Source: Candidatus Sysuimicrobiota bacterium (GTDB taxonomy: Bacteria; Sysuimicrobiota; Sysuimicrobiia; Sysuimicrobiales; Sysuimicrobiaceae). Taken from it: a DNA stretch of 64,000 nt. Shown piece after piece: positions 49,383 through 50,600 of the stretch. Numbering within the stretch: the first letter of the stretch is position 1; each line of letters opens with the position of its first letter. A program made the position numbers and the translations under genes. The stretch is from the NCBI GenBank assembly GCA_040289515.1, contig PSLI01000003.1:10459-74458 (forward strand), given 5' to 3'. The notes under the pieces are model-generated. The model searched no databases and had not been told where the DNA came from. It was given only the letters and a program-made list of their open reading frames with translations.

Positions 49383-50600
49383 ATGGCCAAGCCGAAGTTT
49401 GAGCGTCGGAAGCCGCATGTGAACATTGGGACGATTGGGCATGTGGATCATGGGAAGACCACGCTGACGGCGGCCATCACGCATGCGCTGGCGCGTCTGG
49501 GGTTAGCGGAGCCGAAGGGGTACTACGACATTGACAATGCTCCGGAGGAGCGGCAGCGGGGTTTGACGATCAACATCAGTCATGTGGAGTATGAGACGGC
49601 GAAGCGGCACTATGCGCATGTGGACTGTCCGGGGCATGCGGACTACATCAAGAACATGATTACGGGTGCGGCGCAGATGGATGGAGCGATTCTGGTGGTG
49701 AGTGCGGCGGATGGGCCGATGCCGCAGACGCGGGAGCACATTCTGTTGGCGCGGCAGGTGAACGTACCGGCGATTGTGGTGTTTTTGAACAAGGTGGACC
49801 TGGTGGAGGATCCGGAGTTGTTGGACCTAGTGGAGGTGGAGGTGCGGGAGCTTTTGAGCCGGTATCAGTTTCCGGGCGATGAGATCCCGGTGGTACGGGG
49901 GAGTGCGTTGCGGGCGCTGGAGGCGTTGCAGGGGAATCCGCAGTTGAAGCGTGGGGAGGATCGGTGGGTGGATGGGATTTATGAGCTGATGGATGCGGTG
50001 GATGCGTACGTTCCCACGCCGGTGCGGGATGTGGACAAGCCGTTTTTGCTGAGTGTGGAGGACATTTTCACGATTACGGGGCGTGGGACGGTGGCGACGG
50101 GGCGTGTGGAGCGGGGTCGGGTGAAGGTGGGGGAGGAGGTAGAGATTGTTGGGTTTCGGCCGGAGCCACGGCGGACGGTGGTGACGGGTCTGGAGATGTT
50201 TCGGAAGGTGTTGGACGAGGCGGTGGCGGGGGACAATGTGGGGGTGTTGCTGCGGGGGGTGGAGCGGGAGGATGTAGAGCGGGGGATGGTGCTGGCGAAG
50301 CCGGGGAGCATCAAGCCGCACACGAAGTTTTTGGCGGAGGTATATGTTTTGACGAAGGAGGAGGGGGGTCGGCACACGCCGTTTTTCAGTGGGTATCGGC
50401 CGCAGTTTTACTTTCGGACGACGGATGTGACGGGGACGGTGAGGCTGCCGGAGGGGGTAGAGATGGTGATGCCGGGGGACAACATCAATTTGGAGGTGGA
50501 GTTGATCAGTCCCATTGCCCTGGAGGAGGGGCTGCGGTTTGCCATCCGGGAGGGGGGCCGGACGGTGGGGGCCGGGGTGGTGACCAAGATCCTGGAGTAG
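49383..50600 (+). CDS. tuf: Elongation factor Tu (codon usage atypical for this window)
   Basis: [32 protein letters not shown]...[26 protein letters not shown]... full-length EF-Tu. Uses ATT/CAT/TTT/TTG/GGG codons where every neighbouring gene uses ATC/CAC/TTC/CTG/GGC. Confidence 0.96.

Follow-up and report, generated by a model that had tools for sequence, protein, structure and literature searches.

The tuf gene studied here, encoding EF-Tu, lies on a 64,000-nucleotide stretch of contig PSLI01000003.1 (the window; all positions are counted from its first letter). The DNA has 69% GC and belongs to a metagenome-assembled genome (MAG) of 'candidate division GAL15'/Armatimonadota, in a clade of hot-spring MAGs. 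The codon usage of the gene is unlike that of its neighbours, and a sequence-only reading of the same DNA had taken this, together with the position of tuf between fusA and rpmG, for the trace of a recombination between tuf paralogs or of replacement by a foreign tuf. Our analysis points to a different view: the gene is probably the organism's own and vertically inherited, and its bias seems to be held by a selection-like directional force rather than by mutation bias or foreign origin.

The tuf gene and its neighbourhood

The features are listed by position (C3 is the fraction of codons with C at the third position; G3 and T3 likewise).

29985 to 30904, forward strand: secE (29985 to 30308) and nusG (about 30389 to 30904); Pfam SecE, NusG and KOW
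46386 to 47243, forward strand: rpsL and rpsG of the str operon, from their translations; normal codon usage, synteny with L081, L085 and L087
47265 to 49352, forward strand: fusA (EF-G), translation 100% identical to P0241; C3 0.41, normal; flank of the str-operon type upstream of tuf
49353 to 49382, forward strand: fusA-tuf spacer of 30 nt with a GGAGG-type ribosome-binding site, from the sequence
49382 to 50593, forward strand: repeat unit common to the second tuf locus (conversion tract), from comparison with L106, L089, L090 and L091
49383 to 50600, forward strand: tuf (EF-Tu, 405 aa), from the open reading frame (ORF), translation and codon table; cytosine-purged coding sequence
50601 to 50616, forward strand: tuf-rpmG spacer of 16 nt with a GGGAGG ribosome-binding site, from the sequence
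50617 to 50769, forward strand: rpmG (L33, 50 aa; Pfam Ribosomal_L33, E 2.5e-25); C3 0.44, normal; flank of the tufB-operon type downstream of tuf
50777 to 50950, forward strand: small DUF6800 gene (Pfam DUF6800), normal codon usage
50967 to 52163, forward strand: MFS transporter gene (Pfam MFS_1), belonging to the block downstream of tuf1, with the same synteny in L082 and in L084
52172 to 52248, reverse strand: tRNA-Trp(CCA), found by ARAGORN and Rfam, directly after the MFS gene

The coordinates of tuf are exactly those of the sequence-only reading. The translation carries the GHVDHGKT P-loop and is 100% identical to the EF-Tu of a 'candidate division GAL15' MAG (P0001; Pfam PF00009 GTP_EFTU, PF03144 GTP_EFTU_D2 and PF03143 GTP_EFTU_D3); the three domains, the length (about 395-405 aa in the family) and the P-loop are all present, and the identity to the EF-Tu of many phyla is 70-76% among the matches listed. 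The gene order of the window is secE, nusG, rplK, rplA, rplJ, rplL, rpoB, rpoC, then an oxidase block on the opposite strand, then an L7Ae-family gene, rpsL, rpsG, fusA, tuf, rpmG, DUF6800, MFS and, on the reverse strand, tRNA-Trp. The succession fusA-tuf-rpmG, with secE-nusG 20 kb upstream and without rpmG, is thus as described before; secE-nusG also stand without the tRNA-Thr-tuf-rpmG block that precedes them in the relative L084. In the relatives L084, L086, L094 and L095, it is tuf1 that is followed by rpmG. The product of the DUF6800 gene has 57 aa, and the gene is always found directly after rpmG in the clade (L082, L084, L089). An Rfam scan of the region returned nothing apart from tRNA-Trp.

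A tuf coding sequence purged of cytosine

The third positions of tuf consist of G (0.67), C (0.13), T (0.18) and A (0.02), as compared to 0.51, 0.41, 0.04 and 0.03 in fusA and 0.50, 0.44, 0.02 and 0.04 in rpmG; in the approximately 55 other genes of the window, C3 is 0.30-0.49, G3 at most 0.59 and T3 at most 0.15. The claim that the codon usage of tuf sets it apart from its neighbours is thus borne out. At four-fold degenerate sites, ln(G/C) is 2.75 in tuf and 0.34-0.48 in the ribosomal-protein (r-protein) genes, fusA, rpoBC and all other window genes. At two-fold pyrimidine sites, ln(T/C) is +0.38 in tuf, -2.5 to -2.9 in the r-protein genes, fusA and rpoBC, and -1.9 in other genes. Fisher tests of tuf against the rest of the window gave p = 2e-28 and 5e-30 for the site classes and 8e-8 for the choice of TTG versus CTG. 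The four-fold boxes shift to G (GCG 0.80, GGG 0.79, CCG 0.88, ACG 0.92, CGG 0.82), and the codons GTC, CTC and CGC do not occur in the gene at all. The two-fold pyrimidine boxes shift to T (TTT 0.85, CAT 0.64, AGT 0.75), half of the CTG codons for leucine are replaced by TTG, and all eight serines are encoded by AGY. ATT, CAT, TTT, TTG and GGG had all been named correctly in the sequence-only reading; what had been missed is that all these changes share one direction, the loss of a C, i. e. cytosine is avoided in the sense strand.

Where C is retained, the following base matters: before A there are 32 C and 2 T, elsewhere 19 C and 72 T (p = 3e-14), and this retention is avoidance of TpA. For each C there are about 1-1.5 T, at four-fold sites as well as at two-fold sites and at the first position of leucine codons, as against a strong C excess in other genes. 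The GC content of tuf is 0.62 versus 0.69 in the flanks, and the GC skew (600-nt windows) peaks at 0.50 in tuf and is at most 0.28 elsewhere in the window. Avoidance of cytosine at the amino acid level is weak, and consists of the serine AGY codons and a slight drop of C at first and second positions. Among about 90 tuf genes examined, the window clade has the most extreme purge. The bias is not the far end of ordinary, expression-graded codon adaptation, because other highly expressed genes (r-protein genes, fusA, rpoBC) move toward C at two-fold sites and tuf moves toward T. Nor is it shared by many core genes, a finding that, according to the sequence-only reading, would have pointed to two coexisting codon regimes.

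The bias ends with the coding sequence. C3 changes from 17/40 in the last 40 codons of fusA to 5/40 in the first 40 codons of tuf, a switch that is sharp to the codon at the ATG, where it had been placed before, and in rpmG, 16 nt past the tuf stop, it is back at a normal 22/50. A scan of both edges of tuf detected no promoter-like or terminator-like site, and a terminator would not fit into the 16-nt spacer, so that co-transcription of tuf with rpmG is expected. The tuf1 leader of L084, which is transcribed, untranslated and non-homologous between the two copies, has a C content of 0.37 and is not C-poor. We favour the idea that the directional force is confined to the tuf coding sequence.

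The last 40 codons of tuf are somewhat relaxed (C3 12/40). The relaxation concerns the preference of G over C in the last 20-25 codons (about 50520 to 50597) and recurs in nearly all of 15 other lineages, with C at the third position in 10-13 of 16. The paralogs show no differences there, right up to the stop codon; for this reason, and as a 5' counterpart is absent, an edge effect of gene conversion was rejected. Possibly, C is kept at the end of tuf to interrupt long runs of G.

An old bias common to both tuf copies of the relatives

Close relatives of the window (87-95% DNA identity) were found by exact-protein look-ups; a scan of the genome collection for EF-Tu, with at least 80 loci from unrelated phyla, served as background only. 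In every close Armatimonadota relative examined (L081/L082/L083, L084/L085/L086, L087), both tuf copies, in both canonical contexts, have a C3 of 0.10-0.15 and a G3 of 0.65, with normal flanks. Contrary to the earlier proposal, the codon usage is therefore no signature of recombination: canonically arranged copies have it as well. In one relative, both copies are direct repeats 23 kb apart on one contig (L084, L085), in the order tRNA-Thr-tuf-rpmG-DUF6800-MFS-tRNA-Trp-secE-nusG-rplKAJL-rpoBC-...-rpsL-rpsG-fusA-tuf-rpsJ-S10 operon. The paralogs within a genome or species are 99.8% (L084/L085), 100% (L095/L096), 100% (L081/L082), 99.9% (Thermus) and 99.1% (Truepera) identical, as compared to 87-95% between species. 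Two loci with different flanks are present in the window species, paralogs are closer to each other than orthologs, and the identity ends at the gene edges: two tuf paralogs, one at a tufB-type locus and one in the str operon, are kept alike by gene conversion over the coding sequence.

Between the window and L087, the four-fold sites of rpsL, rpsG and fusA are saturated (divergence 0.56-0.70). The corresponding value for tuf is 0.25, and this is the saturation value calculated from the four-fold composition of tuf itself. From these comparisons, the bias appears to be old and clade-wide and to have survived a complete turnover of the silent sites in the neighbouring genes.

An imported tuf, from a donor with G- and T-ending codons, would explain the lower GC content of the gene as well as the sharp compositional boundary at its edges. 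Yet, the best EF-Tu hits are all GAL15/Armatimonadota, and EF-G yields the same tiered set of neighbours. In a neighbour-joining tree of EF-Tu from about 70 loci, the phyla are monophyletic, Armatimonadota included, and the high-G tuf genes are scattered among them. The anomaly is found in all close relatives and in both copies. An import that has not yet been ameliorated is excluded, as the relatives have the bias too and the silent sites of their neighbouring genes are saturated; moreover, the bias seems to have arisen independently in several phyla (see below). Foreign replacement, the second explanation offered by the sequence-only reading, is thus refuted for any recent event and extremely improbable altogether. 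That reading had named a congruent phylogeny together with a single tuf as evidence against its own proposal: the phylogeny is indeed congruent, but tuf is not single-copy.

Within the Armatimonadota the bias is graded: it is absent from L094, restricted to four-fold sites in L096, fuller in L092 and fullest in the window clade. The arrangement of tuf differs within the phylum as well. In the lineage of L103, L104 and L105, fusA (7001 to 9088 in L103 and L104, 2127 to 4214 in L105) is directly followed by rpsJ, which starts 12 nt past the fusA stop; therefore, the str-operon copy of tuf has been lost there.

The same bias in other phyla

To cover other phyla, four-fold sites of tuf were compared to those of neighbouring r-protein genes, fusA and rpoBC at about 75 loci. 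The neighbour statistics come from genes defined by homology; a version based on long ORFs was discarded due to shadow ORFs in high-GC DNA. An excess of four-fold G in tuf only was found in Gemmatimonadota (0.90 vs 0.42 in neighbours, L038), Acidobacteriota (0.72 vs 0.26, L051), Beta- and Gammaproteobacteria, some Alphaproteobacteria and Synergistota; the values of L024 are 0.75 vs 0.46. In Thermus thermophilus, four-fold G is 0.75 in tuf versus 0.33-0.44 in fusA and the r-protein genes, the four-fold C of tuf is 0.10, and TTT (10/12), ATT (14/22) and TTG (12/21) predominate. Truepera has 0.76 versus 0.27-0.51. No such excess was seen at the sampled loci of Actinomycetota, Firmicutes and Bacteroidota. 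Across lineages, the four-fold boxes shift first, followed by Phe, Ile and Leu; His, Tyr, Asp, Asn and Ser-AGY are affected in the window clade alone. As judged from these sequences, the bias appears to have arisen convergently in several phyla, with weaker forms outside the window clade. Our literature searches found no description of a cytosine bias specific to tuf; a 1987 paper on the Thermus thermophilus tuf sequence by Kushiro et al. reportedly gave about 61% G at the third base.

The tufB operons of Thermus and Truepera (L097 5589 to 5943, L101 5430 to 5905) contain tRNA-Thr(UGU), tRNA-Tyr, tRNA-Gly(CCC) and tRNA-Thr(GGU). The tRNA-Gly(CCC) reads only GGG, which is the dominant glycine codon of tuf in the two organisms but not of the neighbouring genes.

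Such tRNAs bring up a translational selection specific to tuf, in which its codons would be matched to CNN isoacceptors for NNG codons and to the tRNAs of the tufB operon. This fits the mostly GGG-encoded glycines of Thermus and Truepera, the tRNA-Leu(UAA) gene upstream of tuf1 in Armatimonadota with their heavy use of TTG, and the codon-specific order of the shift, in which the last codons are those for His, Tyr, Asp and Asn, read in many bacteria by queuosine-carrying tRNAs. However, the r-protein genes, fusA and rpoBC draw on the same tRNA pool and shift in the opposite direction at two-fold sites. T-ending two-fold codons are wobble-read by the same G34 tRNA, so nothing is gained in tRNA supply. 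Finally, the near-even ratio of T to C in all three site classes looks like an effect on nucleotides rather than codons, and the choice between T and C depends on the next base. We consider translational selection quite unlikely.

What holds the bias in place

One alternative is a mutational origin: deamination of exposed C to T on the non-template strand of a very heavily transcribed gene, with GC pressure then driving four-fold sites to G. The enrichment of G and T on the coding strand is the classical signature of deamination in single strands, the ratio of T to C is about 1-1.5 to 1 in all three site classes, and the strongest shifts to T occur in lineages of hot environments (window clade, Thermus). 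A mutation rate and a directional force make different predictions for divergence at two-fold sites, and these were compared for L081, L085 and L087 with 18 neighbouring genes. Among the three, two-fold sites are saturated to 92-97% in the neighbours and to 27-40% in tuf. A model with a 20-47-fold higher rate of C-to-T mutation in tuf predicts a neighbour divergence of 0.007-0.028, as opposed to the observed 0.055-0.117, and is rejected by 4-6 standard errors (SE). A model of selection with equal mutation, i. e. a directional force, predicts 0.045-0.091, and the observation falls within 1-2 SE. In addition, nothing unusual is seen in the tuf1 leader or in the co-transcribed rpmG and rpsJ, which lie 13-16 nt downstream, the scan for promoters and terminators gave none at the edges of tuf, and eight of eight serines encoded by AGY cannot be reached by silent mutation alone. 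Transcription-associated mutation is thus very unlikely.

A second process would leave the same rate signature, namely biased gene conversion, in which a repair bias acts on the heteroduplex between the tuf copies and on the homologous tract only, i. e. the coding sequence. The anomaly matches the conversion tract within a few nucleotides, and the non-homologous leader is normal. The shift occurs in phyla with concerted tuf evolution (Proteobacteria, Acidobacteria, Deinococcus-Thermus; PMC6053082). Alphaproteobacterial loci in the tufB context show it, and most of those in the str context do not. It is absent from the sampled Actinomycetota, Firmicutes and Bacteroidota. These phyla, taken at large rather than as the genomes sampled here, mostly have a single tuf. 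On the other hand, mismatch glycosylases acting on T:G and A:G are generally known to favour G:C and to be strand-symmetric, and neither a C-to-T change nor a depletion of C on one strand only is expected from them. E. coli is said to have two converting copies without the pattern, and L092 has the shift even though its exact EF-Tu protein is found at one place per assembly. Overall, biased conversion seems unlikely.

Among the possible forces, we favour selection at the level of the mRNA. A G-rich and C-poor transcript in a genome with 69% GC would be unable to form stable G-C helices. Rho loads on C-rich, G-poor RNA; a C-poor tuf mRNA would thus be a poor substrate and any antisense transcript an excellent one. 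The mean predicted minimum free energy (MFE) per 120 nt is -35.9 for the window tuf and -31.0 for that of L081, as compared to -48.6 for the normally coded tuf of L094 and -51.4 for fusA; the purged genes thus lose a quarter to a third, and therefore their potential for G-C pairing is strongly reduced. A role of G-quadruplexes was rejected, as no (G3+N1-7)x4 motif is present in the tuf genes of the window, Thermus, L081 and L038.

Several points weigh against a selection-like force on a native tuf. The rate test takes tuf and the genes around it to have diverged at the same time, and the lineages not to have exchanged tuf. It does not discriminate between selection and biased gene conversion, as the stretch under conversion is the coding sequence itself. 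When synonymous codons were shuffled among positions, z was -1.6 to +1.5, i. e. the loss of structure comes from the composition and not from the arrangement of the codons. The high-GC Actinomycetota lack the shift, which an argument from GC content and structure alone does not predict. The r-protein genes are shifted by only about +0.1 in ln(G/C), where a linear scaling with expression would predict a visible fraction of the effect. Finally, where selection related to transcription acts on four-fold sites, the general trend is toward U and C (PMC4844684) and so runs counter to a preference of G over C.

It is tempting to speculate that tuf has a silent-site rule of its own: in many GC-rich bacteria, possibly those with two converting copies, the EF-Tu coding sequence would be purged of cytosine by a dedicated mechanism that has not been described. 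Candidates are protection from Rho loading or from structure-dependent stalling, with the antisense transcript as an ideal Rho substrate, and a strand-specific conversion bias. We regard this broader proposal as tentative and, as it stands, doubtful.

Two tuf loci and the fusA-tuf-rpmG junction

The sequence-only reading had assumed a single tuf that bridges fusA and rpmG. This assumption failed, since the same species has a second locus as well as a second downstream junction. L106, a metagenome contig of the species, has the order hutU-hutI-hutG(-)-leader-tuf. Its identity to the window is 100% from 49382, which is 1 nt ahead of the ATG, to the contig end inside tuf, and there is no relation upstream of 49382. 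In its leader, the final 27 nt are similar to the leader of tuf1 in L084. The tuf-rpmG contigs L089 and L090 begin at 49382. L091, a 454 contig, matches at 99.7% identity across fusA and tuf and then runs on into rpsJ; it differs first at 50594 and diverges after the stop. In the window species, taken at the population level (99.7-100% identical DNA), tuf thus has two upstream contexts (hutG-leader and fusA) and two downstream contexts (rpmG and rpsJ). At the window junction, one tuf copy contributes the upstream flank and the other the downstream flank, with an exact repeat of 1.2 kb in between, so the earlier description as a hybrid of two ancestral tuf contexts was right in form. Copy-specific differences that might place a crossover within the window tuf are limited to position 50594, next to the stop, and are uninformative.

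The junction is more probably a contig mis-join through the repeat than a real exchange. In a real recombination between the tuf copies, the downstream flanks would have been exchanged by inversion, provided that the copies are inverted, or by excision and re-insertion of a tuf-flanked block, and hut-tuf-rpsJ would lie elsewhere. L091 runs into rpsJ, and all relatives with tuf directly after fusA have rpsJ next (L081, L083, L085, L087, L096, Thermus and Truepera); in the tRNA-Thr or leader context, rpmG follows in all but L092. Nine independent contigs with the exact window RpmG (L089, L090 and seven more) start at or inside tuf, and the independent fusA contig L102 stops about 54 nt into tuf. 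A reciprocal hut-tuf-rpsJ contig was not found; L106 ends inside tuf. Moreover, the copies of the L084/L085 relative are direct repeats, and a simple crossover between them would delete essential genes. Some findings argue for a real exchange. The join is bridged by two assemblies, the window and PSLV01000001.1 (listed for the window and L088), and fusA-tuf-rpsJ is seen in one short 454 contig only; the two bridging assemblies may not be independent, however. A reciprocal-type junction, with a tufB-type upstream and a str-type downstream flank, exists in another lineage: tRNA-Thr-tuf-rpsJ-S10 operon (L092 5805 to 7591), assembled in two MAGs (L092, L093). The arrangement of tuf is fluid in the phylum, as illustrated by L103-105 with fusA followed by rpsJ, and in the window species, secE-nusG have already parted from the tufB block and the orientation of tRNA-Trp is reversed. 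Inversions between tufA and tufB are described for Salmonella. A real exchange is thus the less probable explanation but a serious one. Of the recombination between paralogs proposed earlier, the two paralogs kept alike by conversion stand; the junction itself lies on an exact repeat and may be a product of assembly.

Downstream of the MFS gene, tRNA-Trp lies on the forward strand in L084 and L082 (in L084, preceding secE-nusG) and on the reverse strand in the window and in L089 from the same species. The inverted tRNA-Trp is the mark of a rearrangement in the window species, with a breakpoint that separates the tRNA from the MFS gene. In L110 (2262 to 4907) and L111 (1988 to 4633), a Zip transporter gene downstream of MFS carries an IS110-type transposase as a fusion or an insertion, and a DDE_Tnp_1 element follows. 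This is strain-level variation adjoining the tufB-type block in some populations of the window species.

Other features of the window

A block for a caa3-type cytochrome c oxidase (COX4_pro, COX3, COX1; 41280 to 45283, reverse strand) interrupts the conserved rpoBC-str cluster between rpoC and rpsL. It is kept in L081, L085 and L087 and absent from L096, L103 and Thermus; the gene calls of the relatives include a CtaG gene directly upstream. All Armatimonadota relatives have conserved the L7Ae-family gene (45709 to 46149, forward strand) that lies just upstream of rpsL; since their calls have 69-110 aa, the listed ORF is probably overlong. Similarly, the rpoB ORF (33582 to 37037) has a GTG start and 1151 aa as compared to 1110 aa in relatives, and the true start is probably about 40 codons downstream. 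As compared to the remaining window, GC3 is lower (0.75-0.81) and T3 higher in two regions, 17033 to 21951 and 57272 to 60257. They correspond to PMT_2 glycosyltransferases and to genes downstream of a type II/IV secretion ATPase, and their G3 and C3 are balanced, unlike those of tuf.

Implications and comparison with known systems

What remains of the anomaly is an extreme example of a recurrent, unexplained cytosine purge specific to tuf, and a cautionary junction on a repeat. The purge matters in practice: tuf is routinely part of the reference sets for the codon adaptation index, and as its purge runs opposite to the r-protein genes, such sets can be contaminated in GC-rich lineages. The gene is also used as a marker, and composition-based detectors of horizontal gene transfer will flag a native core gene. 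In MAGs, mis-joins of the str/S10 cluster to the tufB locus are to be expected at an exact 1.2-kb repeat such as that of tuf. From the recurrence in several phyla and the rate evidence for a directional force, a constraint that has gone unrecognised seems to act on EF-Tu at the level of the gene or the mRNA. If tuf indeed followed its own silent-site rule, the usual reference gene for 'optimal' codons would be a systematic exception, with the GAL15 clade as the extreme case.

The arrangement tufB-secE-rpoBC-str-S10 is regarded as ancestral (PMC8046335), and the L084/L085 relative has this full cluster on one contig. As in the tufA/tufB pairs under concerted evolution (Lathe & Bork 2001; PMC6053082), there are two loci in the contexts tRNA-Thr/leader-tuf-rpmG and rpsL-rpsG-fusA-tuf-rpsJ, with an identity that is confined to the coding sequence (99.1-100% within a genome versus 87-95% between species). 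PMC6053082 lists six phyla with concerted tuf evolution, and Armatimonadota are not among them. In contrast to the classical tufB locus, the tufB block of the window species is detached from secE-nusG and adjoins hut genes, and elsewhere in the phylum, the tufA of the classical pair has been lost (L103-105) or the order is tRNA-Thr-tuf-rpsJ (L092). The window junction resembles the recombination between tufA and tufB of Salmonella (Abdulkarim & Hughes 1996, a paper on homologous recombination of the tuf genes with each other that we know as cited in PMC8046335), in that the upstream flank of one copy is joined to the downstream flank of the other. It differs from a proven exchange: the reciprocal junction was not found, and the copies are direct repeats in the L084/L085 relative as well as in the ancestral cluster. 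Equally, a short-read assembler makes just such a junction at a 1.2-kb repeat.

As for the bias, a gene-specific departure in a highly expressed gene with a strand-specific skew is reminiscent of expression-linked codon adaptation and transcription skews (PMC4844684), but the direction in tuf is opposite both to that trend (U and C at four-fold sites) and to the highly expressed genes of the same genome (C at two-fold sites). A close parallel is the tuf of Thermus thermophilus, with an EF-Tu of 405/406 aa, two copies that are 99.9% identical, a GC content of 0.63 versus 0.66-0.70 in neighbouring genes, and neighbours of normal composition. In Thermus, His, Tyr, Asp and Asn keep their C, whereas the window clade has converted about half of those codons and eliminated the TCN codons for serine.

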